A stretch of DNA of 45,632 bases from assembly GCA_027064945.1 (NCBI GenBank), contig JAMOPB010000237.1, positions 1 to 45,632 on the forward strand. The letters are read 5' to 3'. Each line of letters begins with the position of its first letter. Position 1 is the first letter of the stretch. A program made the translations under genes and the position numbers. The DNA is from Candidatus Cloacimonadota bacterium (GTDB lineage: Bacteria; Cloacimonadota; Cloacimonadia; Cloacimonadales; TCS61). Under the pieces are notes generated by a model. That model ran no database searches and had not been told where the DNA came from. It worked only from the letters and a program-made list of their open reading frames with translations. Positions 28,356 to 45,632 of the stretch are shown piece after piece.

Positions 28356-28366
28356 TAATATCTATC
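28356..28366 (-). promoter_or_regulatory. GATAGATATTA motif, instance 3 (minus strand)
   Basis: The minus strand reads cgatagatattagaaaatt, 52 nt upstream of ATG 28304. Confidence 0.35.
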
Positions 28367-28466
28367 GTTAAGGCGAATTTGGAGAAATGAAATTTTTAAA
28401 TTAAAAAATAAAAACCAAACTATCAGACGAAAGACTAGAAACCAAGACATAATAAAAAGGATTATA

Positions 28467-29961: not shown

Positions 29962-30003
29962 TCATTTTAATTTCTGAAATGATGTGTTCTCTTATCTGTT
30001 TTT

Positions 30004-30044
30004 AAATAGAGGCCATATATTGCGGCCTCTATTTTTGTTTTTTT
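30004..30044 (+). terminator. intrinsic terminator after 29740-29961
   Basis: Stem aaatagaggcc (30004-30014)/ggcctctattt (30024-30034) followed by ttgttttttt. Confidence 0.8.
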
Positions 30045-30082
30045 CGTCGACCTATATCATAGCAAATATTAAGGAGGACCTT

Positions 30083-30919
30083 TTGAAATTTGATATTTAT
30101 GAAGGCATTGTACTTGATCGCGATGATCCGAAAAAACAAGGTCGATATTATGTATATATTCCTGAATTGCAATTTAACGATCTAACTGATAACCCTCCAA
30201 TTAATAATAAATATTCAGGTGTATGGTGTTATAATTGCGTTGGAAATAATTTTATTAGATACACAGAGGCTGAACTCAGAGATTTTAAAAACACTAACAG
30301 TTATGGCAGTTATATGCCTTTAAAACCTGGTACGCATGTGCTAGTTGGTTTTCCTGAAAATTCAAATAAAACATATTGGGATTCTGGATATATATTAAAT
30401 ATAATTACTTTTGAAAAACCGCCTAACGAAGACCGTGATGATTTTTATTTGATTTATACAACAGATAAAGAATCTTGGGCTTTTATCGATGAGAATGGAG
30501 AACAATTCGCGATTAGTTTTCATAATGGAAAAAGCAATGTATGGGGTAAAGATGATGTTATTCATTTATCCAAAAAAAATGGTACAGTTGCTGAGATTCA
30601 TGATGATCATATAACTTTATTTCACAATTCCGGCAATTATGTACATATAGACGAGAACCAGATAACTGCTAAAATTGGTGGCAGTTTTATTAAATTGTCA
30701 AATGACCATATTTCTATTAAAGCGGAATCTGTTTACATAGAAGGAAGTTCATTGGTTGCTATAGAAGGTGGTGCCGTTCAAATAAATGATGGAGTTACTG
30801 TGCCAGATTCAGCTGACAGTAAATCGGATATAGCAAAACCATCACTCGATGCTATAAAGGAAATAAATGATAAAGATAAAGAATTGCACAGAAAGATTAA
30901 TAATGGAAGAGCAGAATAA
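30083..30919 (+). CDS. baseplate central spike / hub protein (gp5/VgrG-type OB fold plus beta-helix)
   Basis: TTG start at 30083, 5 nt after AAGGAGG. YEGIVLDRDDPKKQGRYYVYIPEL...PLKPGTHVLVGFPENS matches the Phage_base_V/gp5 OB-fold pattern. The C-terminus is repetitive beta-strand (ITLFHNSGNYVHIDENQITAKIGGSFIKLSNDHISIKAESVYIEG). The 33 upstream codons in the ORF track cross a terminator hairpin. Confidence 0.7.
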   Translation: MKFDIYEGIVLDRDDPKKQGRYYVYIPELQFNDLTDNPPINNKYSGVWCYNCVGNNFIRYTEAELRDFKNTNSYGSYMPLKPGTHVLVGFPENSNKTYWDSGYILNIITFEKPPNEDRDDFYLIYTTDKESWAFIDENGEQFAISFHNGKSNVWGKDDVIHLSKKNGTVAEIHDDHITLFHNSGNYVHIDENQITAKIGGSFIKLSNDHISIKAESVYIEGSSLVAIEGGAVQINDGVTVPDSADSKSDIAKPSLDAIKEINDKDKELHRKINNGRAE

Positions 30920-31049
30920 AAAAAATAAAAAAAGATCATCCCGGGATGATATCATTAAACGCGCAAAAACTAAATTAACATGCGACGGAATTAATGGACC
31001 TTGTATCATAACTTCCAAAAAACAATTTATTTATCCTCCATATCTATAA
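30903..31049 (+). CDS. small basic protein (48 aa) downstream of the spike
   Basis: ATG 30903 overlaps the end of the spike gene. KKNKKRSSR then CDGINGPC. Function unknown. Confidence 0.35.
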   Translation: MEEQNKKNKKRSSRDDIIKRAKTKLTCDGINGPCIITSKKQFIYPPYL

Positions 31050-31060
31050 AGGATTCATTG

Positions 31061-31570
31061 ATGATAATTGGTAACCCTGCTCTTGAAAAACGTTTTTCCA
31101 CTAATGGATTATTTGAAACAAGGCCCAAAGGTGTTATGATATGTGACAGTTGGAATAATGGTGTTTATAAATTTGAACAAACTGCCATCGATACCGCGCG
31201 GCCTGATTGGCCGCGCGTCTGGGATGAATATCTTAAAAAATATTCATTAGTAGATCGCGCATTATTTTTCCCAACTCATTATGTAATAGATACAATTAAC
31301 AATTTACCACAAGTCATTTCTACTCGTCCTTTAAGTTATCGATCATTAATACCTGACTATGAAGAATGGATAACTATTATGATAATTGGAGATAGTAATC
31401 GAGATATTTATACTCCAAGATACTATATGTCAATTGCAGATTTTATAATCAATCCGATTTTTCGAGGAATCCAATCTTGGAAAATGGTGCCTCAACTTGG
31501 TAAAAATGTAGTTTTAAAAAATCTGGGTAGCGGTTTTGTACCTCAAATGCTTGAAAAATATTTGCATTAA
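31061..31570 (+). CDS. hypothetical protein, possible Amidase_2/PGRP-like fold (degenerate)
   Basis: ATG 31061 with AAAGGA 6 nt upstream. KGVMICDS...THYVIDTINNLPQVISTRP...WITIMIIGDSN..YTPRYYMSIADFI parallels the T7-lysozyme-type order of strands, but the zinc ligands are not conserved. Confidence 0.3.
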   Translation: MIIGNPALEKRFSTNGLFETRPKGVMICDSWNNGVYKFEQTAIDTARPDWPRVWDEYLKKYSLVDRALFFPTHYVIDTINNLPQVISTRPLSYRSLIPDYEEWITIMIIGDSNRDIYTPRYYMSIADFIINPIFRGIQSWKMVPQLGKNVVLKNLGSGFVPQMLEKYLH

Positions 31571-31624
31571 CTAATCTTTGAAAAATATATAATATCATAT
31601 TGCACCTCCTTTCATAGTTTTTTA

Positions 31625-31660
31625 GAGACCGCGTCTGCGGTCTCATTTTTTGCTTTTTTT
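31625..31660 (+). terminator. intrinsic terminator of the plus-strand spike operon
   Basis: Stem gagaccgc/gcggtctc with loop gtct, followed by attttttgcttttttt. Confidence 0.85.
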
Positions 31661-31708
31661 CAAAAAAAACAAAAAACAAGAATCTAGCTTGCTGTTTGCT
31701 AGATTCTT
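31661..31708 (-). terminator. intrinsic terminator after 31714-32190
   Basis: 12-bp stem caagaatctagc (31676-31687)/gctagattcttg (31697-31708). A-run at 31661-31675 on plus. Confidence 0.85.
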
Positions 31709-31713
31709 GTTTG

Positions 31714-32190
31714 TTATTTTTGATTAGCTATTATTGTTGGTGATCCGTACAGTTTACCTTTGATATAATTATACGCAGGTCGTGCTGCTGCATTTGCAGC
31801 TCCTGCAGCACCTGCACCGATTGCTGCACCAGCTTTAGCACCCTCACTACCACCTGCAATTGCTCCAATTGCACCACCAACTAGTGCACCAGGCACTGCA
31901 CCATGTAAAGCACGTGAAGCCACATTTTTTACAGTGTAGACATCTCTCATTGTCACATTAGGATCTTTACGCGCTAATGCTCCAATTGCGCCTTCTCTTC
32001 CGTATTCTACTCCAGCTTGAGGTTCTCCAACTTCTCTACCAACTTCTACACCTGTGTTTTTTTCGAAAAATCTCGAAACTGGCACAATAGGTGTTGTAGC
32101 AATAGATGCAAGATCGCTGCTACTTAGCGCGCCTTTGTTAATAGCTTCGCGCGCTTTTTCACTGGCTTCAAATATAATTTTTTCTCTCAT
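31714..32190 (-). CDS. glycine-zipper protein, paralog of 35735-36280
   Basis: GVEYGREGAIGALARKDPNVTMRDVYTVKNVASRA..GALVGGAIGAIAGGSEGAKAGAAIGAGAAGAA..RPAYNYIKGK aligns with the 35735-36280 product. MREKIIFEAS leader. Confidence 0.55.
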   Translation of the reverse strand: MREKIIFEASEKAREAINKGALSSSDLASIATTPIVPVSRFFEKNTGVEVGREVGEPQAGVEYGREGAIGALARKDPNVTMRDVYTVKNVASRALHGAVPGALVGGAIGAIAGGSEGAKAGAAIGAGAAGAANAAARPAYNYIKGKLYGSPTIIANQK

Positions 32191-32196
32191 ATTATG

Positions 32197-32769
32197 TCAT
32201 CCTTTTTTTGGCATCAAATAACAATAAATATCGTGATCACAAATTGCTTCAATATCTTTATCATTTTTTAATTTATTCAACATGTTTTTACCGATTTCTT
32301 CAGCATCCACAAACACAAAATAATTATCTGCTTTAATTTTATCTCTATCATCACCATATGAAGGCATAAGTTTGAAATAACTTGGCGCGTTTATTACAAA
32401 ATCTTTTATTAATTCATATGATTCTTTTTCATTAATAAATCTTGGAAATACTGTTGAAGAATATTTATCATAAAACGTGATTGCATATGGCTTATTTTTA
32501 GGAAACGGCTTACAGTTTGCGCAGTGAAAGTCTTTAGATTGCAAAACAACTGGTTCTGCGTAAGCTACTAGTTTACCGTTTTTTTCAAATGCGTATACGC
32601 CACAACAAGCATCATTTAATTCTCTTAGCACATCATTGATGTTTGCTGATTTCGGCTCATCAGATAATTCATCAAGATGTCTTGACACGTAATTTTTAAA
32701 CGATATAGATTTAGTTGCTGGTTTAATAATAAATTTTAAAGAATTTATTTGTCCCGTTGCCTCCAGCAA
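32197..32769 (-). CDS. Cys-containing hypothetical protein (190 aa, TTG start in track)
   Basis: The ORF is open from the upstream stop. The only in-frame start candidate is TTG 32769, with no clear SD. Confidence 0.4.
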   Translation of the reverse strand: MLEATGQINSLKFIIKPATKSISFKNYVSRHLDELSDEPKSANINDVLRELNDACCGVYAFEKNGKLVAYAEPVVLQSKDFHCANCKPFPKNKPYAITFYDKYSSTVFPRFINEKESYELIKDFVINAPSYFKLMPSYGDDRDKIKADNYFVFVDAEEIGKNMLNKLKNDKDIEAICDHDIYCYLMPKKG

Positions 32770-32811
32770 TAATGCTTTTGCGCGATATGTGATATATTTT
32801 TTATCCGTGTT

Positions 32812-33699
32812 TTATCCTTTATTTAATTTATTTGTTAAATATGCGTACAAACCAACACCGATTAATCCTGTTTTTGTTACAACACCATTCCAAAAAGCAT
32901 GTAATACTTGCGCAATCAATGTACCGCGATCTTCGATTGCTTGTTTTATTTTATAATTATTCGGGTTTTTTGAATATAATTCGATAAATTGCGATTGCAA
33001 TTGTGTTTTTTTGTGAAAATATGTTGTGGATAAGTGAAATACAAACGAAAACAATCTCACAATAACTAGAAACAATACAGGAAAACCGAGTGCGGCAAAC
33101 TGCATAATATATGAAAGAGCTTCAGCGCCTGCTAAAGCAGAGGTCATTAAAAAACCTTTATACTGTTTAACGGCTGCACGTTTAAAGATTTCTTCAGTGA
33201 ACGGCGCACATAAAATTGCACCAATATATAACCCCATAGGTCCGAATAACGATACGCACGTAGTCATCACAACAGTATTTAATATATAAATAAAAATAAA
33301 CATCACCGCAAGTATTAATGCATCTTTTGCTTGAATATTTTTTAATTCTTCTTTGAATTCATTGATAATAAAATCAAAAGTGAATATTTTATCCAGATCT
33401 TGATATTTGCCTTGCTCGATATTTTTAATTATTTGATCTATTTTGCGTTTATCGATTCCTTGTTTGTCTAAAAACTGTATTATTCTCTGTTGTTGAGAAT
33501 AATACATGCGTTTCACACGTTCAATATCTTTTTCAGACTGAAATGCTTTGAAAAGAGAATCATATATTTTTTCTAAAAATGCGTTAATCGGATTGCTGAG
33601 TTTAGCAAATTTTTCTGTGATATCAAAATCAGATGCACGCGATTTAACCGAAGCTGTTTTAGCAATAGCTACAGCTTCAGTTATTATCATTTCGCGCAT
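32812..33699 (-). CDS. CPBP (CAAX protease / Abi, PF02517-type) intramembrane protease candidate
   Basis: Multi-TM protein with PFTEEIFKR (EExxxR motif 1), a mid-TM His (FSFVFH, approximate FxxxH) and LHAFWNG (HxxxN motif 3) in the expected order. MREMIITEAV leader. Confidence 0.55.
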   Translation of the reverse strand: MREMIITEAVAIAKTASVKSRASDFDITEKFAKLSNPINAFLEKIYDSLFKAFQSEKDIERVKRMYYSQQQRIIQFLDKQGIDKRKIDQIIKNIEQGKYQDLDKIFTFDFIINEFKEELKNIQAKDALILAVMFIFIYILNTVVMTTCVSLFGPMGLYIGAILCAPFTEEIFKRAAVKQYKGFLMTSALAGAEALSYIMQFAALGFPVLFLVIVRLFSFVFHLSTTYFHKKTQLQSQFIELYSKNPNNYKIKQAIEDRGTLIAQVLHAFWNGVVTKTGLIGVGLYAYLTNKLNKG

Positions 33700-33701
33700 T
33701 A

Positions 33702-34214
33702 TTAACCTTTTTTAATAATTTTTCTAGGATCTGTCTTAATTGCTTCTTTAACTGCTTTAAGAAATTCTTGTTTTGCTTGATCGTTAGGGACACCATTTTT
33801 AATTAATTTAAATATCTCATATAATCTTGATATTGCAAATATTGCAGCAAGCGGTGTCATTATTGGCGCTGCAATCAATGTTACGCCGGGTACAAACCCA
33901 AGTCCGATAACAACTGCAATAACATCAATTATAAAGAAAAGTACAGCCATAGCAAATTGAGCGAAATAATCACTTTTAGACATTAGATGTTGATCACTTT
34001 TTTCAAGTAAATCTTCAACTTTTTCTCCCCAAGCAACTATTTTTTCCCACTGCTTTGTATTAATTTTACCTTGTTTATGCATTTTTTCAGCCCAATCATA
34101 AACTTCTGTGTATATATCTACAAGTTTATTATGGTTGGTCATAATTTGGTGTTCTAGATCTTGAGAAACTGATTCTTCTATTATTTGCATTGTTAAACAA
34201 CTTAATTCTGCCAT
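33702..34214 (-). CDS. membrane protein (170 aa, two TM helices)
   Basis: FAMAVLFFIIDVIAVVIGLGFVPGVTLIAAPIMTPLAAIFAI. N-terminal region contains MQIIEES. Confidence 0.5.
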   Translation of the reverse strand: MAELSCLTMQIIEESVSQDLEHQIMTNHNKLVDIYTEVYDWAEKMHKQGKINTKQWEKIVAWGEKVEDLLEKSDQHLMSKSDYFAQFAMAVLFFIIDVIAVVIGLGFVPGVTLIAAPIMTPLAAIFAISRLYEIFKLIKNGVPNDQAKQEFLKAVKEAIKTDPRKIIKKG

Positions 34215-34215
34215 A

Positions 34216-34740
34216 TTAATTTCCTTTTCTTTTATTTACTAGCGGACCGCTCCCGTCATACTGGGTACCAATTGCTTTGATGATTTCACGCTCATATTCG
34301 CGTAAATCTTTTGGATTATCAAATGTTTTTATAATAACTATCCAGTTATTTTTATATTCATCTAGGTTTTTTGGCATCAGATTATCAGGATTTCCGCTTT
34401 GCTTATTTTGTTCGATTTGTCTTTCAAGTTCTTGAAAAAATTTCTTTTTGTATTGATTTTGTGAATCATCGATATTTCGGACAAAATTGTTTATATGATG
34501 ATTCATACGGTACTGCAGGCTGTTTTCTAGTTTACCTACATATACTGGTAAGTATGCTGATTTAACAGTTTGCTGTTTACCACAACACTGAAAATTATAT
34601 TCATAATCACCACTATGGAAAGGATCTAAATACATATAAATAGCATATTTATGTTTGCGATAATCGAAACGAGCAACTCTCGGGCTAACTTTGTCATATT
34701 TAAGATTTGTGGTTTTGTAGCTGTCTGATGTTATTAGCAT
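34216..34740 (-). CDS. GIY-YIG homing endonuclease
   Basis: KYAIYMYLDP (GIY-like), PVYVGK (YIG), YRMNHH (conserved Arg/His), REYEREIIKAIG (catalytic Glu) and LVN, in I-TevI-like order. Confidence 0.7.
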   Translation of the reverse strand: MLITSDSYKTTNLKYDKVSPRVARFDYRKHKYAIYMYLDPFHSGDYEYNFQCCGKQQTVKSAYLPVYVGKLENSLQYRMNHHINNFVRNIDDSQNQYKKKFFQELERQIEQNKQSGNPDNLMPKNLDEYKNNWIVIIKTFDNPKDLREYEREIIKAIGTQYDGSGPLVNKRKGN

Positions 34741-35084
34741 TTTAACTTCTTCCTTAATTCTGTAAGCTGTTTGCTGTTTATCTTGCTGCAGATCGAATTT
34801 TCTTTTGCACGGATAAATAATTCGATAAATTGTCTAAAATCTTCGCGAGTTGCTTTTTGGCGATAACTACGTTTAAAACTTGTATGAAACATTTTATGAC
34901 ATTCATCACATAAACATATACCATTTTCCGGGTCGAAGCGTTTTTCTGGAAAATAAGTTGCGTGGTCTAAATGATGCGCGTGTCTATTTTTAATCGATCC
35001 ACAAATTTGACATACCTTATCACGTCTAATCACGGTGGCGCGCCAAATACGGTAATCGCGGGTTCGACGCCAGTTTTTGCTCAT
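34734..35084 (-). CDS. HNH homing endonuclease
   Basis: WRATVIRRDKVCQICGS..HAHHLDH....ENGICLCDECHKMFH is a classic phage HNH pattern with CxxC...CxxC and H-N-H. Confidence 0.9.
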   Translation of the reverse strand: MSKNWRRTRDYRIWRATVIRRDKVCQICGSIKNRHAHHLDHATYFPEKRFDPENGICLCDECHKMFHTSFKRSYRQKATREDFRQFIELFIRAKENSICSKINSKQLTELRKKLKC

Positions 35085-35326
35085 TTGTTTTTCTTTTTAT
35101 CAGATTTTGTGATTTTATTAGTCAGATAGATTGAACCTAGTGCTCCGCCTGCTGCTCCTAATCCTGCTAATTTAACATGAAGTGCAGGCATAGTTAAATC
35201 GCCTGCTAATGTATCAGCTAGCGCGTGACCAGCAACCGCGCCACCTGCAAGTCCCGCACCTAACATGGCTAACCTTGCTTTTGGATTTTCTTTCAATATT
35301 TTTCTTGCTTTTTCCGCAATACTCAT
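35081..35326 (-). CDS. small glycine-zipper membrane protein (81 aa)
   Basis: LAMLGAGLAGGAVAGHALA....LAGLGAAGGALGSIYL. MSIAEKARKIL leader. Lys-rich C-terminus. Confidence 0.55.
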   Translation of the reverse strand: MSIAEKARKILKENPKARLAMLGAGLAGGAVAGHALADTLAGDLTMPALHVKLAGLGAAGGALGSIYLTNKITKSDKKKNK

Positions 35327-35327
35327 T

Positions 35328-35735
35328 TTATAATCCTTTGCATTCGCGTTCTAAATCATGAATTTCTTTTTTAAATCTCTCGATAATTTGATCTAAAGAA
35401 ACTTTTTTAGCTTCGTCGTAATGTATTTTTACTTTTTGACCTTTTATTTCAGGGTTATCAATTGCATATTTGATATCCTGATCACATTTACTTAAATATT
35501 TTTTAACACTTGCTTTGAATATATCCATCGCGATTGCATAAGGAATTTTTTTACATCTGGTAGATTTTGCAGCTAGTAATTCAGCACGGCGCCAAAATAA
35601 AGCCATCAAGCTTTCAGGTACATTGTATTTTTTTGCCCAAGACTTAATAACATTAGAATTTGTTTCAAATCCACGGACTACCGGACAACGTGCTTCAAAT
35701 ATCAATTTAGCTTTTTCTGCAATTAGATCTCTCAT
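35328..35735 (-). CDS. hypothetical protein (135 aa)
   Basis: Coupled ORF. MRDLIAEKAKLIFEA leader. Confidence 0.5.
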   Translation of the reverse strand: MRDLIAEKAKLIFEARCPVVRGFETNSNVIKSWAKKYNVPESLMALFWRRAELLAAKSTRCKKIPYAIAMDIFKASVKKYLSKCDQDIKYAIDNPEIKGQKVKIHYDEAKKVSLDQIIERFKKEIHDLERECKGL

Positions 35736-36280
35736 TAGCTTACCCCGTATTTCTTTTTCATATTTTCAAGTTCAGCTTCTTTCTTGCCGCGCCAATAATT
35801 ATATCCTGGTTTGATTAAAGCACGACCAGCTGTTTTTAATAAACCAGCACCTGCCCCCAGCAGTGCACCTCCTCCAACACCAATCAACAAATTTAACCCT
35901 TCATTGCCTCTAGCATGACTAGCTAATGCTGCTCCTGTAGCTGCTCCTGCTGCAGCACCACCAACTACGTCTTTTGTTAAACCTTGTTTTGCACGCGCTA
36001 TAATATTTTTTCTCGTATAAACATCTGTCCATTTGATATTTTTATCTTTTGCAGCTAACGCCCCTACTGCACCTTCTCTTTCATATTTTTCACCAATTTG
36101 CTCGTGCCCAACTTTACGTCCAGCAAGAATTGAATTTATACGATTATACTCAGAACCATGAAACCAATCAGAACTGCGTTTGGCTGTTTCATGTTCGGCG
36201 TACTTATTTATTAAAGCACGTGCTTTTTGTTTTGCACGTTCCCTGGCTTCTTTTATACTGTCTGATGTACTACGAGCCAT
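35735..36280 (-). CDS. glycine-zipper protein, paralog of 31714-32190
   Basis: GEKYEREGAVGALAAKDKNIKWTDVYTRKNIIARA..VVGGAAAGAATGAALA..IGVGGGALLGAGAGLL..KPGYNYWRGK. Confidence 0.55.
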   Translation of the reverse strand: MARSTSDSIKEARERAKQKARALINKYAEHETAKRSSDWFHGSEYNRINSILAGRKVGHEQIGEKYEREGAVGALAAKDKNIKWTDVYTRKNIIARAKQGLTKDVVGGAAAGAATGAALASHARGNEGLNLLIGVGGGALLGAGAGLLKTAGRALIKPGYNYWRGKKEAELENMKKKYGVS

Positions 36281-36283
36281 CTT

Positions 36284-37303
36284 TTATACTCTTACTTTTG
36301 ATTTATAATTTAAAACGATTTTTTCCATGTTGAGCTGAATTTCGCGATCGATTGGCCCCATGTTAAATAAAATAGAATGATGCGCAGATATTACAGCCCA
36401 TGCTACAAAATAATCATAAGTACCGTAGATCATTGATAAAACATTTGTTCCAAATCTTTTTGCAATTGCGTTATTTAAAGCTATTGGTGTGATGTTAATT
36501 ACTTTGATCATACCAAGTAAAGCCGGTAATTTATCCATAGAATTCAAAGAGGTAATTCCGTTTTTTGCTAATAAATCTGCTATCTCAGATCCATATTTTT
36601 TTGCAATGTTATGTAATACCTCACGAGGTTTCAAATTTGTAAATGCCACTGTGAATATATAATCGATTGCTGCGTTATATATTTTTTTATCATGGATTTG
36701 CATCATGCTTCCGATGCTTATTTCAAGAATTTTTTTAAATAATTCTATACTTAAATCAAAAAGTGTAACACTGGAACCTCTGTCAATTTCAGCAACTATA
36801 TATCTTAGAAATGAAAAATAAATAGCTTCAGCAATTCTCGGATAATCGAGCATAGCGGCTAAAGTTTCTTGTAATTCCTCACTTTCATTTTTAAGATTCA
36901 CAACTTTTTCAATCGAAGCATCATCAATTCTTTTTTGTAGAGTTATAATTTCTTTTGAGATTTTTTCTAATTTTTTAATTATATTAATAATATCAGTAGC
37001 TGTGTCTGGCGAACAGCGTACTATGTCTGGTATAATGCCTGCTAGTAAATTATGATCACCAACATAAATAGAAAAAACCGGAACTTCGCTACCTGCAGCT
37101 GTCGCGCTGTATCCTAAAAATATTTTATCGTTATCTAACAATTTACGTACTGTTCTGGTGTATGCGTTGGCACCTAGTTTCTGCAACGTTATATCCATAT
37201 TTTTATAGAATCTATTGTAAAGTATTTTAGAAGGTTGTTTCAAGATTCTTGCAATAGATTTTTCACTGCTTTCAAAAAATGGAGTTAAAACTGTTTTTTG
37301 CAT
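36284..37303 (-). CDS. hypothetical protein (339 aa, helical)
   Basis: ORF in the operon. No domain recognised. Confidence 0.5.
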   Translation of the reverse strand: MQKTVLTPFFESSEKSIARILKQPSKILYNRFYKNMDITLQKLGANAYTRTVRKLLDNDKIFLGYSATAAGSEVPVFSIYVGDHNLLAGIIPDIVRCSPDTATDIINIIKKLEKISKEIITLQKRIDDASIEKVVNLKNESEELQETLAAMLDYPRIAEAIYFSFLRYIVAEIDRGSSVTLFDLSIELFKKILEISIGSMMQIHDKKIYNAAIDYIFTVAFTNLKPREVLHNIAKKYGSEIADLLAKNGITSLNSMDKLPALLGMIKVINITPIALNNAIAKRFGTNVLSMIYGTYDYFVAWAVISAHHSILFNMGPIDREIQLNMEKIVLNYKSKVRV

Positions 37304-37317
37304 GTGGATCCTTTAGA

Positions 37318-37659
37318 TTAAATTTTGCTATTTAATAATTTTTGTATATAAAGTTTATCTGGAATTAGCATCTGATCACCGATATTTTCGCGCGTAAAAT
37401 TAAAAAATGTTGGACAATCATTAATAAACATTATTATATTTGTAAGAGCTAACGATTGAAAATAATCCCATGCCACTAAATCAGGGCGCATATCGTATCT
37501 CGAAGAAGAAAATTCTATTTTATTTGAATTTTCTTTTAATTCTTTTAAATTTAAGTTAAAAATATTTTCAAGAGGCTCAGATGTTAATTGTTCATATATT
37601 GATTCATCGAAATCGTCCAATTCAGTAGGAATGAAAGGTGTATAGCGTTTTATTTCCAT
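37318..37659 (-). CDS. hypothetical protein (113 aa), faint LysM/tail-protein-X-like C-terminus
   Basis: YDMRPDLVAWDYFQS...ENIGDQMLIP is weakly reminiscent of P2 gpX-type LysM. Not sufficient for a call. Confidence 0.35.
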   Translation of the reverse strand: MEIKRYTPFIPTELDDFDESIYEQLTSEPLENIFNLNLKELKENSNKIEFSSSRYDMRPDLVAWDYFQSLALTNIIMFINDCPTFFNFTRENIGDQMLIPDKLYIQKLLNSKI

Positions 37660-37668
37660 TTTTTTCTC

Positions 37669-38247
37669 CTATACTGGGTTAAACGGCTGGTGTGGTTGGT
37701 GTTCTAATTTTCTAGCTATCGGAACACCGTTTTCTTTATAAAGATAAGTGCGCACTTTCTTTACCCGTTTATCCATAATTGAATTGTCAACTTTTACTTT
37801 GGGATAAATATCATTTTTAGTTTTAAAACGATCTTTTTGATCTACAATACTTTTGCTTTTGCGTTTAGGATTATAAGGATTAGCAACATTTCTGATCATT
37901 TCAGCGCTTTGCCCCATTTGATAAGGAGATTCATACATACTTTCTTTAATTATTTTTTGAGCTTTTTGCTTGATTGTTTTGCGATTAATTGGAAGTATTG
38001 ATGAAGGATTTAAATCGTTTTTTTGCAATTCTATTTCTGCATCTGGTTCACCATCAGAATCTATATCAAGTTCTAATTCGATTTCTTCAGGAGCTTTAAG
38101 TTGGTTTAATGACAGTTGTGCGCCTCGTTTAATATTTTGAGTTAAATTGCGTGCTTGGTTTGTGATTACAGTTTTAGTTCCTGTCATAATTTTAGCACCA
38201 CTTGTTATCGAGTTTAATATTGATTTATTATTATCGCCCATATACAT
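37669..38247 (-). CDS. hypothetical protein (192 aa, basic)
   Basis: Coupled ORF (1-nt overlap at 38247). Confidence 0.5.
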   Translation of the reverse strand: MYMGDNNKSILNSITSGAKIMTGTKTVITNQARNLTQNIKRGAQLSLNQLKAPEEIELELDIDSDGEPDAEIELQKNDLNPSSILPINRKTIKQKAQKIIKESMYESPYQMGQSAEMIRNVANPYNPKRKSKSIVDQKDRFKTKNDIYPKVKVDNSIMDKRVKKVRTYLYKENGVPIARKLEHQPHQPFNPV

Positions 38248-39146
38248 TATTCTGCCTTTTCGATTTCTGTATCATTATTTGTTTCATCATTTTTTTCTAG
38301 CTCTTCACCAACTTGTTCTTCTGTAGCATCTCCGGCAAAATCTGGGTGTGCTTCTTTATCTACTTTATAAGGACCGTAATGAGCTACTTCGGTTTCGTCC
38401 CCATTGAGATCTGCAACTTTAACAATAACAGATAATGATAACGCTCGTACCCAGTAATCTGCATCTACTTTCATTAGCATATATAAAAATGAATCTTGTA
38501 ATGTGAAACTCATATTTATTGAATGTGAATCACTGTTTTTATCTTGATTAAGTGAAATTGATTCACATTTCATAATCGGTGTTGAGACGCATTTAGCAAA
38601 CAGATCATAGTTACTAGCATCATCTTTCATTTGAGCAAATATATTTATTGCATTATCCGCAGCAGGATCATATCCTTCAAGTATATTTTCAGGTAAATAA
38701 AGAAAATAATCGTATTCAAAATCGTAATAATATTTACCCTCATGAGGAAAATACTCACTGTAATTATGAAAAAAATCTAACAATTGCGCACCAGTTTCAA
38801 AGTTAACTGTAATATCGATACCAATATTGTACCTATTGGTTAATCCGTATATTTCAAATTTATCCAATACGCTTGCTATTGGGAAAGCGTTAGGAAATTG
38901 TATCAAATCTGCAGCATTTGTACCGACAGACATGTTTTGAGCAAGAGGATATGTAAATTGTTTTTGAATATTATTAATGTTGATAATGCCTTTTGGGAAT
39001 GGTTGCGGATTTCTGTGAAGTTTGATAGAATCAAAGGTTTTAGAATTATAATTAAAATCCCATTGGCTAATTGGTAATAATGGTGAAGCTGATTGAATAG
39101 CTGCAGCCATACCTCGCATTAAAGCATAATATTGTGTGTGTATCAT
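38247..39146 (-). CDS. hypothetical virion-type protein (299 aa), first gene of the minus-strand operon next to array R
   Basis: AAAGGACGAAGACT-ATG. GCCCCAATGATTAGCA element (39184-39199) upstream. Acidic C-terminal tail. Confidence 0.5.
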   Translation of the reverse strand: MIHTQYYALMRGMAAAIQSASPLLPISQWDFNYNSKTFDSIKLHRNPQPFPKGIININNIQKQFTYPLAQNMSVGTNAADLIQFPNAFPIASVLDKFEIYGLTNRYNIGIDITVNFETGAQLLDFFHNYSEYFPHEGKYYYDFEYDYFLYLPENILEGYDPAADNAINIFAQMKDDASNYDLFAKCVSTPIMKCESISLNQDKNSDSHSINMSFTLQDSFLYMLMKVDADYWVRALSLSVIVKVADLNGDETEVAHYGPYKVDKEAHPDFAGDATEEQVGEELEKNDETNNDTEIEKAE

Positions 39147-39183
39147 AGTCTTCGTCCTTTGATCAATTGCCTTTTATTTAAAA

Positions 39184-39199
39184 TGCTAATCATTGGGGC
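39184..39199 (-). promoter_or_regulatory. GCCCCAATSATTAGCA element upstream of 38247-39146
   Basis: The minus strand reads gaaGCCCCAATGATTAGCAttttaaataaaaggcaattgatcaaaggacgaagactATG. Confidence 0.35.
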
Positions 39200-39223
39200 T
39201 TCTCAATATTTTTATATTTTTAA

Positions 39224-39235
39224 GATAGCATACTA
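39224..39235 (+). promoter_or_regulatory. degenerate GATAG-cATAcTA motif at the left edge of array R
   Basis: taagatagcatactagaaaaca. Same orientation as the array units. Two mismatches to the motif. Confidence 0.2.
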
Positions 39236-39383
39236 GAAAACAATTCACAGTGAACCGTCCAGACCGGGATGATATCTAGAAAAAAGTTTTTCTGCATCTA
39301 GGTTCTGCCAACTGTAACAAGCTATTAGAAAGGTTGTTATTTTAAAACAACAAACTGAAAAACTAGTTTGGTCGTCTAGACTA

Positions 39384-39454
39384 GTTAGATAACTTCCTTT
39401 TGGAAGTTATCTAACAGGCCATCTCATTGTTACGACTTCATCGTAACAATGAGA
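39384..39454. repeat. double-hairpin module (array R copy 1)
   Basis: gttagataacttcc-tttt-ggaagttatctaac and tctcattgttAcga-cttca-tcgTaacaatgaga, both perfect 14-bp stems. Confidence 0.9.
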
Positions 39455-39696
39455 TCAGACCGGGATGATACCTAGAAAAAAGTTTTTCTGCATCTAGGTT
39501 CTGCCAACTGTAACAAGCTATTAGAAAGGTTGTTATTTTAAAACAGTAAACTGAAAAACTAATTTGGATGATCAGACCGGGATGATACCTAGAAAAAAGT
39601 TTTTCTGCATCTAGGTTCTGCCAACTGTAACAAGCTATTAGAAAGGTTGTTATTTTAAAACTGCAAACTGAAAAACTAGTTTGGACGATCAGACTA

Positions 39697-39767
39697 GTTA
39701 GATAACTTCCAAAAGGAAGTTATCTAACAGGCCGTCTCATTGTTGCGACTTCATCGCAACAATGAGA
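39697..39767. repeat. double-hairpin module (array R copy 2)
   Basis: gttagataacttcc-aaaa-ggaagttatctaac and tctcattgttGcga-cttca-tcgCaacaatgaga. Flanked by 8-nt direct repeats gatcagac at 39687-39694 and 39766-39773. Confidence 0.9.
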
Positions 39768-40056
39768 TCAGACCGGGATGATATCTAGAAAAAAGTTTTT
39801 CTGCATCTAGGTTCTGCCAACTGTAACAAGCTATTAGAAAGGTTGTTATTTTAAAACTGCAAACTGAAAAACTAGTTTGGACGATCAGACCGGGATGATA
39901 TCTAGAAAAAAGTTTTTCTGCATCTAGGTTCTGCCAACTGTAACAAGCTATTAGAAAGGTTGATTTTTAATATCAGATAATTTGTCAAATTTAAAAAAGA
40001 ACTGGGAGAAAATAAACACCAATTTCTATATATTCTTTAATAATTAAAATAAGTTA

Positions 40057-40067
40057 GATAGATATTA
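40057..40067 (+). promoter_or_regulatory. GATAGATATTA motif, instance 2
   Basis: agatagatattataataagaaaaataaaa, about 47 nt upstream of the rod hairpin at 40114. About 30 nt are similar to instance 1, with 2 indels. Confidence 0.35.
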
Positions 40068-40113
40068 TAATAAGAAAAATAAAAAAATAAATAAAATAAA
40101 TAAAATAATTTTG

Positions 40114-40208
40114 CCTCGAAGCTGGTTACAGAGCCTAGGGGCTGGGAGAGAGGCGACCGCGCGGCGCGTACTCTCTCAGTCTCGCGGGCTGCTGAGCCAG
40201 CTTCGAGG
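40114..40208 (+). other. 95-nt GC-rich rod-like hairpin in the 5' leader of the plus-strand block (processing site, attenuator or ncRNA candidate)
   Basis: Outer stem cctcgaagctgg/ccagcttcgagg (12 bp). Inner stem ctg..gagagag (40142-40152)/ctctctcag (40171-40179). A-rich tract upstream and ttatttatttttt downstream. Confidence 0.7.
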
Positions 40209-40240
40209 GATCGTTATTTATTTTTTAAAGGAGAAAAAAA

Positions 40241-40372
40241 ATGAAAATTAAAAAACGCGATTGGAATATCGTAGCCATAGCTCGTGGCGAAATTAATGCA
40301 CGCCCAAAAGTAGTGCATTCTAAGAAAAAATATTCACGCAAATTAAAACATAAAAAGCGTGAATATTTCTAA
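40241..40372 (+). CDS. 43-aa highly basic peptide (MKIKKRDWNIVAIARGEINARPKVVHSKKKYSRKLKHKKREYF), speculative ArfA-like tail
   Basis: Not in the ORF track because it is under 60 aa. AAAGGAG 8 nt upstream of ATG 40241. The C-terminal K/R tail resembles KGKGSYxRKxKH of ArfA-type ribosome rescue factors (from memory). Internal 7-bp hairpin at 40295-40319. Confidence 0.4.
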   Translation: MKIKKRDWNIVAIARGEINARPKVVHSKKKYSRKLKHKKREYF

Positions 40373-40482
40373 TTTCTATTTTAAAATTTATCTTTTAAGA
40401 TTAATATATAGAAATTATATATTGAAGGAGACCAGTATTTTGGCTCCAAAAAACAAAAAAACAAATCAAAAAAGGAGAACAC

Positions 40483-40968
40483 ATGAACGGTTTAACTTAC
40501 AAACAATGGAATGAAAGTATCAGAAACATTTTAAATAAATATCCGAAGTTGGTAACAGAATTGAAATTACCAAATACGGTAATGCTACAGTTCAGAAAAG
40601 TTGAATCTAAAAAATTAACAATCGATACTTTTTCAAAATTTATAGAAGGGTTAGGATTAAGTTTCGAGATTGTTATCAAAGATAAAGATGGAAACACTGT
40701 AGATACAACTAAACTTGAAAACTTAGCTGCAGACAAAGTTGAAAAAACGAAAAAAGAAACCCTTGCAACCATTGCAGGTGTTTCTACTGTTTCAAAAAAA
40801 GAAGGAAATAACACGTCTGCGCATGTTACAATGCCAGATGCAGATGATGTATTACCAGCAACTGGAGAAGTTAAAATTGGAGAATCTGTGTCTCAAAGCG
40901 AGAATGATTCAGCGCTTGCTGCGTCACCAGAGGTAGAAGTAGATCTCCAAGCAATATTCGGCAACTGA
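40483..40968 (+). CDS. hypothetical protein, possible HTH-like N-terminal domain with acidic tail
   Basis: AAAAGGAGAACAC-ATG. TIDTFSKFIEGLGLSFEIVIKD resembles the end of an XRE-type HTH. Followed by a strong terminator. Confidence 0.45.
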   Translation: MNGLTYKQWNESIRNILNKYPKLVTELKLPNTVMLQFRKVESKKLTIDTFSKFIEGLGLSFEIVIKDKDGNTVDTTKLENLAADKVEKTKKETLATIAGVSTVSKKEGNNTSAHVTMPDADDVLPATGEVKIGESVSQSENDSALAASPEVEVDLQAIFGN

Positions 40969-41295: not shown

Positions 41296-42636
41296 ATGAG
41301 TTTAAAAATTGATTTTTCCCTTTACGAGATCGATCTTCCTGTAGTGACTTCTTCCAAAATTTTTGCAAATAATAAAAATGAGTATCATGAAGAAGGATTA
41401 TATTCGCAGAAAATATTTGGACCGGTTAAAAATTACGAATGCAAATGTGGTAAGTTAAAAGGTAAATATTATGCAGGTCAAAGATGTGAAGATTGCGGAG
41501 TGCTTTGTGATAGTAATGATTTGCGAATGAAAACATTTGCGCAAATAAATTTACCATCTGATATCTGGGTTGTATTTCCACCTTTAAAACATGTGTTACA
41601 TAAGATCTTTAGCAAAAGAGCAGTTGATAAGATCATGACTTTTGATCCGCATGTGTATGAAGTACATGACTATTTTATATACGATTTAAATGATGCAACT
41701 CTTGTTAATGTGAATAATTTGATAAATGAGGATGAAATTAAAGCAAAAATTTCAGATCAAGCAAAAGAAGAACTGAATATTGATGAACTAGAAAAACTGA
41801 GAGCAGAATTTGTTAATAAATGGGTTTCTGAAAATCTTAATCCAGAGAGGTACTTAATTGATTTTAAAATTTATTCTATAATAAATCTGAAACATTTATT
41901 TGACTATTTGTATGAAAATCATTGGGAAATATTTGAGAAGAAACAAGTTGGTAATCGCGATATAGTTAAATTTGCTTTTGTGAATAAAATACCAGTGACT
42001 CCACCAGATACAAGACCTGTTATTAAGATAGCAAAAAACAGATTTAGTGTTAATGATATTACTAAATCCTATAGTGAAATTTTGAAAAATCTTGAACATA
42101 AATTCATGGATGATATTTATTTACAGATACAAGATGAAACCGAGCGTAATATATATCTTGCAAATGCTGCTAAAAAATTCCAGCGTTCAGTTGACGATAT
42201 TTATAAATTCGCACAAGAAAATCAGCTAGGCGATAAAGAATCCATTTTAAGAAACTCTATTCTTGGAAAAACAGTTGAATTTAGTGGAAGAACTGTCGTA
42301 ACATGCGGTGCAAATGTTCCACCTTATATGATCTCAATTCCTAGAGAATCTGCAAAAGTATTGTTTATTCTCGAAGTGCTAAATTATCTTGTAAATAATG
42401 ATAATGATATTTTAGATATTGATGATATTGCTTCTTTAATGCAATTAATTACGAACAACATTGAGGATGCAGAATTAAAAATTGATGATGATGTATTTGA
42501 TGAAATTTATCAGAAAATTAGACCGCAGCTGCGTGTTATGTTTGAAAGACCTCCAACATTGTTTATGTATAATGACAGCACATTTATTCTAGATGAGCTA
42601 TTTGAAAATAAATTTAAAATGAAGGAAGAACTATGA
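41296..42636 (+). CDS. phage multisubunit RNA polymerase beta-prime, N-terminal half
   Basis: IFGPVKNYECKCGKLKGKYYAGQRCEDCGVLC (beta-prime zinc motif), IPVTPPDTRPV, LRNSILGKTVEFSGRTVV (NLLGKRVDYSGRSV equivalent). It ends at ERPPTLFMYNDSTFILDELFENK ([22 protein letters not shown] equivalent). Confidence 0.9.
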   Translation: MSLKIDFSLYEIDLPVVTSSKIFANNKNEYHEEGLYSQKIFGPVKNYECKCGKLKGKYYAGQRCEDCGVLCDSNDLRMKTFAQINLPSDIWVVFPPLKHVLHKIFSKRAVDKIMTFDPHVYEVHDYFIYDLNDATLVNVNNLINEDEIKAKISDQAKEELNIDELEKLRAEFVNKWVSENLNPERYLIDFKIYSIINLKHLFDYLYENHWEIFEKKQVGNRDIVKFAFVNKIPVTPPDTRPVIKIAKNRFSVNDITKSYSEILKNLEHKFMDDIYLQIQDETERNIYLANAAKKFQRSVDDIYKFAQENQLGDKESILRNSILGKTVEFSGRTVVTCGANVPPYMISIPRESAKVLFILEVLNYLVNNDNDILDIDDIASLMQLITNNIEDAELKIDDDVFDEIYQKIRPQLRVMFERPPTLFMYNDSTFILDELFENKFKMKEEL

Positions 42637-42998
42637 TGACTTTAAAAATAATACTTGCAATTGTTTTTTTTGTTATTTTCTGGATAATTCCTAGTTTACT
42701 AGGTACTTGGATGCTTTTGAGAATTCTTAAAAAAGATTTTTTACCTGTAATCACAAAGTTGAATATTAAAGAGGATGGGCTATCTTTAGCTGATTTAATT
42801 TTTTTAAATATTTTTGTGTTTAGTGTATTATTTGTATTGTTTTTAACGTGGATTCCAGCTGTAAATTTTGTAATGTTATGGTCATTTTTTGATTACAGTG
42901 GCGATTTGAATTTAGATAAAATGTACATTATTAAACCGCGTGATAAGCAAACTAATTCTAATTCAGATTCAGAATATGATGGAATTATTTGTGAATGA
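42633..42998 (+). CDS. 121-aa membrane protein encoded between the two beta-prime halves
   Basis: ATGA overlap with the beta-prime N stop. GAAGGAAG SD. Two or three hydrophobic helices (ILAIVFFVIFWIIPSLLGTWMLL; IFLNIFVFSVLFVLFLTWIPAV). Confidence 0.55.
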   Translation: MMTLKIILAIVFFVIFWIIPSLLGTWMLLRILKKDFLPVITKLNIKEDGLSLADLIFLNIFVFSVLFVLFLTWIPAVNFVMLWSFFDYSGDLNLDKMYIIKPRDKQTNSNSDSEYDGIICE

Positions 42999-43016
42999 TT
43001 TTAAAAAGGGGAACAT

Positions 43017-45011
43017 TTGAAAAAGCAAATACAAACAATCGCAATAAACCCGATGATCGCAAGAAACTATAACGTGGATTTTGACGGCGACGGTATGGGG
43101 ATTACAAATCTCCAATCCGAGCAGGCCAAAAGAGATTTTTATAAATTGTTTATCGCAAATCATGTGAAATTATATTTTGATCCTGATACATACATTCCAG
43201 AGCTAACACATGAAGCTGTTTACAGCTTGTGGGCAGTTACTCATAAAATATCTGAGAATAACTGGCAACAGCGTGCTCCAATCACTGAATTTGAAAATTT
43301 TAAAAGTGTAAAAATTCGCACGTCAAATATAAAAAAATCTATTTTGGAACCTGTGTACGTTAAGAGTGTCGATACAACGATGCCTTGGTTTTGGGCACTA
43401 GTGCACAAAACTATTTATCAATGGGGGTCAGGCAAATTAGCAACTGAGAACGGCGGCGACGGTAAAGAAAAAATACTTTTTGACATTCATAAAGTATATA
43501 ATAAAAAAGCAATTAAAGAGATGTTTGATGCAATTTTTGATATCTCTGTTTCGAATATCGATTTTATGAACAGAATTTGGAAATTGAATCAATTTTTAAA
43601 TGAATTATCAAGTATTTACGATATAGCAATTCCTTCATTTGAAGCTGATGATTTTGTGGTTAGTTCAGAACAGATCGAAGAATTTAAAAAGAATTTCGTA
43701 ACTGAACCAGTGATCGGATTTCATCAGAACATGTATTTATTCTACAAAATGGTCTTACCTTATTTAGAAAACTATAAAAACGGTAATAATATTCTTTATA
43801 AAGTTTTTAAATCAGGTTCAAGACTTAAAGCTGTACAATTAATGAAATCAACTGCAAGTAGCGGTATACCGACTGATATTTATGGTCGCGCAATTAATAG
43901 AAATGTTGCAACATCTCTTTTGGAATCATTAAAGCCGGATGAAATGTTTGATTTAGCAAACGGTGCAAGAATGGCGCTTGCAGCACGTGAGACATTGATT
44001 CCTGCATCGGGCGAAATGCAAAGAATCATTATGAACAGTATCGGATTTATTATGTTGGATCAAACAGTTGAGGATTGTGGATGCGAACATGGTTTTAAGA
44101 TCAAAGTAAAAGATGAAAAGCATTTGAGATCACTACAGAAACGTATCATGGTGGATGGCCATGTTATAGATCCTGAAAAAGACAAACATCTGATAGGTCA
44201 AACTATTGAGATTTTTTCACCAATGACTTGCAAACTGGATGGTTTTAAGATTTGTAAAAAATGTTGGGGGCATTATTTACCGCCTGCTGATAAAAATGGT
44301 ATCAGTTATGTAGGTACTTTGGCAGCAAGTGCAGTTGTTGAACAATTATTACAATCAAGTTTAAGATTGCACCACACAGGTGGTACGTGGGAAATGGAAA
44401 CATTGTATAATGAAATTTTTGATATGATGGATCGCGGTGTAAAATTTTGGAGTGAAGAAAACGACGAAGGTGAGCCAATTACCTATACTGATGCTAATGA
44501 GAATGATTTGAATACATTAAAGGAAATTATGATTCCTAGATATTACGCAGAAGACGAAATCGAGTTCATAGAAGTTGAAAAAGGAAAAATCGCAATTGTT
44601 CCACATGTAAAACTACAAAACCAAGATGCTTCAAGAATATTAAGAGAGTTTGCTACATTAGTGTATGGTAAGCGTGAATTAAATGCAAGTAAAGAAAAAC
44701 ATGAGTTAATAGCTCCTGAAGTATTTTATGAAAAAATTGTGGATATAGTGTTTGAAGGTGCATATTTGCTATCTAACTATATAGAAGTGATAATGAGCGC
44801 ATTATTTTATGATGAAAATATGGAATCTATCAGATACAGTGGACGACCGCCTGTATATCAAACACCATTAAAATCCGTCATACACACTATAGATCCTAAA
44901 TTATCTATTTTTTATAAATTAAGTAATAATGCTCTTAAAAACATTTATCAAGGTGAAAGCAGATATGAGCTAGATCATATGATGTATAAATTAATGAATT
45001 GTTATAGATAA
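43017..45011 (+). CDS. phage multisubunit RNA polymerase beta-prime, C-terminal half (catalytic DFDGD)
   Basis: TTG start after [29 protein letters not shown] equals [39 protein letters not shown] (bridge-helix region). [25 protein letters not shown] (trigger-loop pattern). Confidence 0.9.
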   Translation: [664 protein letters not shown]

Positions 45012-45494: not shown

Positions 45495-45632
45495 CGGAGA
45501 AAAAATAATCAGATGGGAAATGAATATCGGTTTTCTGATTGCTATATTTGGTGCTTTTTTTATAGACACTAGTACGCTAAAAGGACTGATTATGTCGTGT
45601 ACAATGACAATAGCTGCTGGAATTTTTATGAG
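45481..45632 (+). CDS. membrane protein, 5' partial (runs off the window)
   Basis: ATG 45481 with AAAGGA upstream. MFKISGEKIIRWEMNIGFLIAIFGAFFIDTS... is hydrophobic. Overlaps the preceding stop. Confidence 0.35.
   Translation, partial: MFKISGEKIIRWEMNIGFLIAIFGAFFIDTSTLKGLIMSCTMTIAAGIFM

Follow-up and report, generated by a model that had tools for sequence, protein, structure and literature searches.

A twin-hairpin module with maintained base pairing in the tandem repeat arrays of an uncultivated phage lineage, and its possible role in leader RNA

The module described here, M, consists of two unrelated perfect hairpins with 14-bp stems, 6 nt apart, lying in the extra 79 bp of the longer units of intergenic tandem arrays in a phage genome, and its base pairing is maintained in every copy that we found. 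M is a fixed, optional 5' extension of the repeat unit (U), and thus integral to a lineage-specific repeat unit and not a mini-transposon. Based on the sequences of the arrays and of their relatives, we tentatively propose that M may act in cis as a pair of sense-strand stem-loops in the leader transcripts of promoter-like units, a reading to which we assign a probability of about 35%.

Twin hairpins within two inverted arrays

The window, i.e., the whole stretch of 45,632 nt that was analysed, is phage DNA with a GC content of about 30%. It encodes a T4-type large terminase (positions 16989-18773, + strand), which is at most about 25% identical to that of any cultured phage, and the beta-prime subunit of a multisubunit RNA polymerase split over two genes (41296-42636 and 43017-45011). 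The best solved-structure match of the C-terminal beta-prime fragment is a chain of the AR9 non-virion RNA polymerase, and its N-terminal counterpart has its matches among cyanobacterial gamma and bacterial beta-prime subunits. A search for tRNA genes returned none, and cultured phages gave no nucleotide match to the array region.

Two arrays were detected, mutually inverted and each placed in a divergent intergenic region. Array B (39257-39976, + strand) reads U-M-U-U-M-U-U, with a partial last unit, and lies between the divergent genes 38247-39146 (- strand) and 40241 onward (+ strand). Array A (16386-16929), read on the - strand as U-M-U-U-U, lies between a 1379-aa gene (12201-16340, - strand) and the terminase gene. 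The unit U is about 115 bp long and occurs five times in array B with start-to-start spacings of 196, 117, 196 and 117 bp, in agreement with the preliminary description, according to which the longer and shorter units differ by exactly 79 bp. Array B is built from a duplicated super-unit of 313 bp (TRF period 313, 2.3 copies, 94% matches), and its two M copies therefore represent one event and are not independent. The copies of M in the window are shown to derive from tandem duplication of a 313-bp block of one M and two U, and from exchange between the inverted arrays.

Hairpin 1 of the module has the form GTTAGATAACTTCC-N4-GGAAGTTATCTAAC and hairpin 2 the form TCTCATTGTTRCGA-N5-TCGYAACAATGAGA; neither gave a chance match in 100 shuffles. 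In the first copy of array B (B1), hairpin 1 occupies 39384-39415 with a TTTT loop and hairpin 2 occupies 39422-39454 with the loop CTTCA and an A-T pair at stem position 11 (39432/39444). In the second copy (B2), hairpin 1 (39697-39728) has an AAAA loop and hairpin 2 (39735-39767) has G-C at stem position 11 (G39745/C39757); all four hairpins are on the + strand. The array-A copy (16722-16792, - strand) comprises hairpin 1 at 16792-16761 (loop AAAA), the linker at 16760-16755 and hairpin 2 at 16754-16722. A pattern search recovered the same three copies as had been listed before (39384-39454, 39697-39767 and, inverted, 16722-16792). The exchange of A39432/T39444 in copy 1 for G39745/C39757 in copy 2 and the change of the hairpin-1 loop from tttt to aaaa between these copies, both noted earlier, were likewise recovered. 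The statement that all stems are perfect holds for array B; the array-A copy carries a C-to-T change in the hairpin-1 stem, seen as C.A on the + strand and as G.U in the unit sense.

Each U opens with a CCGG-centred quasi-palindrome, GATCAGACC|GGGATGATA, and its start also holds the A/T dyad CTAGAAAAAAGTTTTTCT; the arrays are clusters of dyads. All units share an invariant core, CCAACTGTAACA-N6-TAG, that is confined to the arrays and occurs once per unit, e.g., as CAACTGTAACA-N6-TAG at 39505-39524 (+ strand). From the position, orientation and invariant core alone, we infer that U may be promoter-like. The core fits the late-promoter consensus of phage AR9, AACA-(6N)-TA/G (PMC5312081). This is a low-information motif that matches 91 times in the window, and we have therefore kept the similarity as a lead only. 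A scan of the arrays for sigma-70 promoters gave nothing above shuffled sequences. Folding gave no significant structure for U (z of -1.6 to +1.0), and U as a structured RNA was rejected.

Occurrence of the module in related phages

A relaxed scan of metagenome contigs with a gapped hairpin-1 pattern returned 18 loci. At 4 of these (L007, L011, L012 and L017), true M copies lie within arrays of related units, and the other 14 are chance palindromes. A search for terminase homologues followed by contig look-up yielded one further contig, L030, which comes from the same sample as L002, encodes a terminase 96% identical to that of the window and adds one more M copy. In addition, contig L001 from IMG/VR carries an array of related units without any M. 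The total is nine full copies of M and one partial copy, to which the relatives contribute six full copies and the partial one. M is found in at least six contigs from several samples, at constant position and orientation, and some of the related contigs were obtained from hydrothermal-vent metagenomes.

Searches beyond these contigs gave no additional copies. A covariance model built from the nine M copies had no further match in the 176 kb searched. Exact and gapped scans of IMG/VR with hairpin 1 and hairpin 2 returned nothing, and the gapped pattern of the unit core detected there only L001 and three chance matches in coding regions; protein-seeded locus searches of IMG/VR with the terminase and the 299-aa gene also returned nothing. 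Among 185,579 species-representative genomes, hairpin 1 was absent and no true M copy was found; three matches to the hairpin-2 core in the genome collection are unrelated palindromes in high-GC MAGs. The plasmid collection held neither a match to the array region nor a copy of M.

The arrays precede different genes in different relatives. In L007, the array is located upstream of a homologue of the window gene at 26739-28304, a place where the window has no array. The unit sense points at the downstream gene in L001, L011, L017, L007, L030 and both arrays of the window. In L001 and L011, the array follows a co-directional gene and the terminator of that gene, and the core is missing from the last U of L007 and L017, which places M between the last intact core and the start codon, i.e., in a leader position. 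The array of L012 is an exception, as it points into the 3' end of a convergent gene. Besides, the array at the terminase locus has opposite orientations in the window and in L030, and in relatives whose terminases are about 80% identical, this place is occupied by tandem arrays of a quite different, CTAG-rich kind. The clade is a small group of uncultivated low-GC phages with their own multisubunit RNA polymerase, in which U arrays front operons.

In public assemblies of this phage, the arrays are sites of breaks or jumps. Contig L002 is identical to window positions 28247-39285 and then runs into an RNA polymerase beta gene, and contig L004 starts at window position 39811. The arrays with M appear to be break and inversion points of the genome modules of this clade as well as of the metagenome assemblies. 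The closest described architecture is that of the Campylobacter group II phages CP21, CP220 and CPt10, in which repeat regions separate genome modules and modules are inverted between phages (PMC4546147). Both systems have units of tens of bp to about 100 bp with a core consensus, direct or inverted arms and arrays placed between gene modules, and both show unit numbers and orientations that vary among close relatives, inverted modules, assembly breaks at the arrays and transposase genes in the vicinity. On the other hand, the two lineages are different, since the phage studied here has its own multisubunit RNA polymerase and a terminase only about 25% identical to those of cultured phages; the unit sequences are unrelated, and no hairpin, palindrome or stem-loop is mentioned for the Campylobacter phage repeats (PMC4546147).

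Base pairing, template switching and the unit junction

In the alignment of the nine full copies, all 252 stem pairs (252/252) are standard ones when read on the unit-sense strand. With the 3' partners shifted by 1-3 columns, pairing fell to 30-56% and no compensated pair was left, and a shuffle control was also far lower. Hairpin 2 has three compensated positions (C-G/G-C, T-A/A-T and G-C/A-T): four copies have C-G and five have G-C at position 2, L030 has A-T at position 6, and window copy 1 has A-T at position 11. The hairpin-1 stem is invariant in seven of the nine copies, and the remaining two (window array A and L030) each carry a one-sided C-to-T change, which gives G.U in the sense strand and C.A in the antisense strand. 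All other variation sits in the loops and the linker, i.e., the hairpin-1 loop (AAAA in 5/9, TTTT in 4/9), the hairpin-2 loop (CTTCA, CTCCA or CTTCG) and the linker (AGGCCG or AGGCCA). Stem-disrupting single substitutions are thus clearly not as common as compensated ones; no pair is broken in the six copies from relatives, which add two compensated hairpin-2 positions to the one described preliminarily and contain only G.U-compatible one-sided changes. The pattern, in which pairs are kept and unpaired positions vary, is the generic one for a pairing-constrained hairpin or a structured cis-RNA, a signal that template switching mimics.

When DNA polymerase switches template between the two arms of a short inverted repeat, the arms become homogenised, and if the switch is intermolecular, the spacer is inverted; such inversions have been documented for spacers of 2-5 nt flanked by perfect arms of more than 9 bp and are reversible (PMC8604942). 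RNA hairpins, too, have been shown to arise and persist through template switching (PMC8794818). Once copied to the opposite arm, a single mutation looks compensatory, and the double substitutions in M are therefore not clean proof of selection. Likewise, hairpin 1 of B2 is the exact reverse complement of hairpin 1 of B1, and the change from TTTT to AAAA is thus an exact spacer inversion. Quasipalindrome or inverted-repeat template switching (the Ripley model) accounts for the pair-keeping double substitutions, for the inversion of the 4-nt spacer and for the recurrence of both in M. It is, however, a mutational mechanism and not a function, and it leaves the low symmetric drift and the fixed position of M unexplained.

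It might be argued that M has no function at all and is a by-product of this mechanism, made and kept perfect by template switching, which can create or maintain perfect hairpins and invert their loops (PMC8794818, PMC8604942), and carried along by the concerted evolution of the arrays, some of which (L001) do without M. We regard this as improbable. Homogenisation of the arms does not stop symmetric drift, yet lineages with 27-37% divergence in the flanks (63% identity over 70 nt upstream and 73% over 60 nt downstream) are distinct at only 3 of the 28 pair positions, and M is about 91% identical between the two phage groups, even with each loop flip counted as four mismatches. Besides, long perfect palindromes are prone to deletion, yet M persists in at least six contigs at constant position and orientation. 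The low symmetric drift and the persistence of such deletion-prone palindromes make some purifying selection on M likely, acting on sequence as well as on pairing. The preliminary description had proposed selection on structure rather than on primary sequence; the structural part withstands the refuting condition set there, in that pairing is kept everywhere, but the stem sequences are too conserved for the second, and template switching offers an alternative to selection.

The same description regarded M as a MITE-like mini-insertion with a target-site duplication, bounded by the 8-nt direct repeat gatcagac. For B2, the left copy of this repeat (GATCAGAC) lies at 39687-39694 (+ strand) and the right copy at 39766-39773, where it overlaps the last 2 nt of hairpin 2. 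The repeat occurs seven times in the window against 0.65 expected, always in the arrays, and it is also the left half of the quasi-palindrome of U itself, GATCAGACC|GGGATGATA. It bounds two of the window copies with 8/8 matches; in copy 1, the left 8-mer is gtctagac (not gatcagac) and matches the right one at 5/8 positions, and the six copies from relatives match at 2-6 of 8. All ten M copies share one junction, immediately 5' of the CCGG-centred start of U, and run in the direction of U. To the left of M, two different unit tails occur, and to the right there is always the start of U.

These observations weigh heavily against M as a mobile or selfish palindromic element, MITE-like or PATE-like, that was inserted at a unit boundary with target duplication and then spread. 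This reading would explain why U occurs with and without M, why a perfect 8-nt repeat surrounds two of the window copies and why M is far more similar between phages than its flanks, as predicted by recent spread. Yet there are no terminal inverted repeats, as the outer end GTTAGATAAC agrees with the other, TCTCATTGTT in reverse complement, at 2 of 10 positions and each hairpin is palindromic only with itself. All ten copies have the same junction and orientation, the flanking 8-mer match is imperfect in 7 of 9 copies, and the search for dispersed copies called for by the preliminary description detected none outside the arrays in 176 kb or in the viral, plasmid and genome collections. M resembles MITEs, PATEs and REP elements in being small, non-coding, hairpin-forming and optional in its units, with a Y1 transposase gene nearby, and differs from them in lacking terminal inverted repeats and dispersal, in its single homologous site and in a flanking repeat that is not conserved. 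A MITE, understood as a non-autonomous derivative of a DDE transposon, was rejected for lack of terminal inverted repeats and of unrelated insertion sites.

The transposase gene is an IS200-type tnpA (Y1_Tnp, E 7e-38; a Y1 HUH transposase) located about 165 bp past the end of the window, with a GC-rich LE-like hairpin upstream of it; Pfam did not confirm a TnpB in the 334-aa ORF that follows, which is truncated by the contig end. The IS200/IS605 family is not known to make target duplications, and the tetranucleotide on the left flank of M is not conserved (AGAC, ATCC, ATAC, AAAC). TnpA of this family recognises subterminal hairpins, which would favour a link with M, but the IS200/IS605 palindromes are similar to each other and imperfect, and the target is a fixed tetra- or pentanucleotide (PMC3597680). 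The hairpins of M are perfect, unlike each other and unlike the LE-like hairpin of tnpA, and they lack such a target, so that a PATE derived from IS200/IS605 was rejected; the derivation of M from the neighbouring IS200-type element was rejected on its left end only, which has no similarity to M. Overall, the mobile-element reading is already largely refuted and we consider it very improbable. The coexistence of units with and without M probably reflects loss or gain between the short direct repeats that bracket the palindromes. Slipped deletion between these repeats explains the two unit types as well as insertion does, and gain and loss of M are equal in this respect.

Possible functions of the twin hairpins

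In the reading that we favour, tentative as it is, the promoter-like core of U would fire in the unit-sense direction, the upstream U would transcribe M into the leader, and M would fold there as two very stable stem-loops. These stem-loops might act on the RNA by protecting or defining transcript ends (processing, stability), or by insulating tandem promoters from each other or attenuating read-through between them. Actual formation of the hairpins would keep M symmetric through purifying selection working together with template switching during replication, which would copy one arm to the other and invert short spacers, so that one step would suffice for a "compensatory" pair or a TTTT/AAAA flip. 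As RNA, the 87-nt M segment is predicted to fold with -41 to -47 kcal/mol and a z-score of about -10 on either strand, in contrast with the -1.6 to +1.0 of U.

Several features favour this sense-strand RNA reading. Each of the two one-sided stem changes leaves a wobble pair on the sense strand but a mismatch on the antisense strand, the sense strand points at the downstream genes, M follows the last intact core and precedes the start codon in L007 and L017, and the loops of M vary freely. In addition, a second strand-asymmetric, RNA-type hairpin is located downstream of array B on the same strand. On the other hand, the two G.U cases amount to only a 4- to 16-fold preference for the sense strand, approximately, and the antisense fold is slightly stabler than the sense one (-47 vs -42 kcal/mol). 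Conserved stems with free loops are also typical of a DNA site bound by a dimer, and the orientations of the L012 array, which faces a convergent gene end, and of the terminase-locus array, inverted relative to L030, also speak against it.

An alternative that we consider possible but doubtful takes up the pattern of conserved stems with free loops: a phage regulator, dimeric or tetrameric, would bind each palindrome as a duplex-DNA operator, and these sites would control or insulate the promoter-like units, the symmetry of their variable positions being due to template-switch homogenisation and not to selection for pairing. Each site would then precede the core of the next unit by about 70-140 bp. 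The arms are conserved and the central spacers vary, and the inversion of the hairpin-1 spacer in 4 of 9 copies would be neutral for a duplex site; one-sided changes are tolerated, and the mutational mechanism is documented (PMC8604942). M is also tied to the 5' end of U, whose start is itself a quasi-palindrome with an A/T dyad, within arrays that are clusters of such dyads. However, 28 symmetric base pairs per site go far beyond the contacts of a dimer, at each of the three drifting positions both arms have changed, never one alone, and both one-sided changes are wobble-compatible on the same strand. Two unrelated palindromes would, moreover, need two different proteins, and we found neither an isolated M copy near any candidate regulator gene nor a DNA-binding domain in the genes adjacent to the arrays, and identified no candidate binding protein.

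M might also act at the DNA level, as a cruciform or single-stranded hairpin that primes, nicks or resolves, with the arrays serving as transcription-primed origins or as hot spots of recombination and module shuffling; we find this rather unlikely. Perfect palindromes of 14+14 bp with 4-5-nt spacers belong to the class that extrudes, and since extrusion is very sensitive to mismatches, it would explain the absence of broken pairs. Array B is directly followed by a very AT-rich stretch (39977-40110), which recalls the primary origin of phage T7, where tandem promoters are followed by an AT-rich stretch, and the cumulative GC skew is lowest at 37-39 kb, a signal confounded by a switch in gene orientation. 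The arrays occur at differing loci and orientations in close relatives, assemblies break there, and a Y1 HUH transposase gene is found just past the window; the arrays also resemble those repeats of Campylobacter group II phages that lie between invertible modules (PMC4546147). Against a DNA-level signal, the short and variable loops make a conserved nick site in the loop unlikely, the array of L001 without M indicates that M is not essential to array function, and M bears no relation to the hairpin at the left end of the neighbouring IS.

Returning to RNA-level roles, intrinsic termination of the canonical type is excluded, because no T run follows either hairpin. The stems of M are followed by AGGCCG and TCAGACC, without a T or U tract on either strand, and a terminator scan of 39100-40500 and 16300-17000 found no terminator-like site. 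M shares with intrinsic terminators only that its hairpins are stable and intergenic. The same phage uses long, perfect terminator hairpins with T runs, such as the one at 19531-19560.

Stem-loops of phage leader and intercistronic RNAs, such as the RNase III processing sites of T7 and the put sites of phage HK022, are stable hairpins without a U tract, located downstream of tandem phage promoters and upstream of genes, and the HK022 put antitermination RNA comprises two stem-loops in about 70 nt. M is similar in its lack of a U tract, in its position upstream of genes, and in its two stem-loops of about 70 nt. RNAs of the T7 and put types, however, contain internal loops or bulges and conserved unpaired nucleotides, whereas M has perfect stems, free loops and a conserved stem sequence, and shows no sequence or Rfam similarity to them. 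A more specific version, in which M is a hitherto undescribed cis signal for the phage multisubunit RNA polymerase, seems improbable to us. A self-templating twin hairpin in the nascent RNA or in extruded DNA would in this case modify the polymerase as it leaves the tandem promoters, for instance by processive antitermination of the put type, by hairpin-dependent termination or insulation that needs no U tract, or by priming replication at the promoter arrays from an R-loop or hairpin. Rfam 15 gave no match at the gathering threshold in the whole window; between 39100 and 40500, only sub-threshold chance matches were obtained, none of them centred on M, and an E-value threshold also gave none. 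M belongs to no curated RNA family, and we found nothing on promoters, terminators or RNA processing in this phage lineage.

The conserved pairing of M also serves as a natural caution for covariation-based RNA discovery, as compensatory pairs and loop inversions within perfect palindromes can stem from template switching during replication rather than from selection. The break and inversion points at the arrays matter for the reconstruction of the genomes of this clade. If M is a functional hairpin signal, it would be a compact, lineage-specific regulatory element of uncultivated phages that encode their own multisubunit RNA polymerase.

Unit core and RNA polymerase genes

Every unit of the ~115-bp tandem repeat contains a core of the form CCAACTGTAACA-N6-TAG (for example at 39505-39524), which agrees with the late-promoter consensus AACA-(6N)-TA/G of the non-virion multisubunit RNA polymerase (nvRNAP) of phage AR9 (PMC5312081). 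The best PDB match of the C-terminal fragment of the beta-prime subunit encoded in the window is also the AR9 nvRNAP. Because the AACA-(6N)-TA/G motif alone occurs 91 times in the window, the agreement is only a lead. The beta-prime gene itself is split (41296-45011) into genes of 446 aa and ~652-664 aa, which are separated by a 121-aa ORF (42633-42998) with no assigned function. The second of these genes starts with a TTG at 43017 in our ORF call, as against a public gene call of 652 aa.

Hairpins, short repeats and a transposon-like neighbor

Besides the hairpins of the 79-bp module, the phage carries other palindromic elements. At 19531-19560, the perfect 30-bp palindrome TAACGAGATTCGCAGCTGCGAATCTCGTTA has a run of T residues after it on the - strand. 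It is the canonical intrinsic terminator of the gene at 19574-19993, and contrasts with the module hairpins of the same phage. The near-perfect palindrome gatcatcccgggatgat(a)tc at 30933-30953 is preceded by an A run, i.e., a T run on the - strand, and is thus terminator-like; it has 13 nt in common with the quasi-palindrome opening each repeat unit. Short in-frame tandem repeats within ORFs of the minus strand were observed at 6524-6699, 19600-19764 and 20074-20158 (units of 15, 33 and 9-18 bp, respectively). They encode low-complexity protein repeats and have no relation to arrays A and B, which are composed of the ~115-bp units with or without the module.

Downstream of array B, a GC-rich imperfect hairpin of ~100 nt (40108-40215, + strand) stands out from the phage background of 30% GC. 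RNA folding gave a minimum free energy of -70.7 kcal/mol for the + strand (z -8.2) and of -49.0 kcal/mol for the - strand (z -4.6), and this higher + strand stability implies a richness in G.U pairs and points to what is probably a + strand RNA element. No match to it was found in Rfam. A basic 43-aa ORF (40241-40372) with a weak match to DUF7230 begins 30 nt downstream.

An IS200/IS605-type element lies ~165 bp past the window end, at 5815-7402 of contig L004, with its left flank beginning inside the window at 45611-45632. Its tnpA (Y1_Tnp, E 7e-38) lies between a GC-rich left-end-like hairpin, which comes first, and a 334-aa ORF that is truncated where the contig ends and for which Pfam gave no confirmation as TnpB. 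The sequences of this element and of the twin-hairpin module are unrelated.

Arrays within the phage and among its relatives

Array A (16386-16929, - strand) and array B (39257-39976, + strand) are inverted repeats of each other, with up to 166 nt at 95% identity, and enclose a 22.5-kb block of the terminase and minus-strand genes, mostly without annotation. In public assemblies of the same phage, breaks or jumps fall within the arrays: L002 departs from the window at 39285 and then runs into an RNAP beta gene, while L004 begins at window position 39811. These breaks suggest that a third array exists or that a genuine rearrangement happened.

The comparison of close relatives indicates that the arrays change place or orientation. 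In L030, a strain with a terminase 96% identical to that of the window, the terminase gene is preceded by an array (9470-9990) whose orientation is opposite to that of array A. In L007, a module-bearing array (3100-3349) lies upstream of the homologue of the gene at 26739-28304, before which the window holds only a 160-bp spacer.

In relatives with terminases ~80% identical, the terminase gene is likewise preceded by tandem arrays, but these are of a different, CTAG-rich kind (L035, 1-310; L036, 1330-1850; L037, 1-500; L039, 1-660), with units of, for example, ~41 bp (tctagaaccttttgggtcctaggcacctcagatgcacagaaa) or 32 bp (L036). L035 retains a CCGG-centred palindrome, tcaaaccggtttga, and a gccaact motif. 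Across these relatives, an array as such is conserved at this position, but not its sequence.
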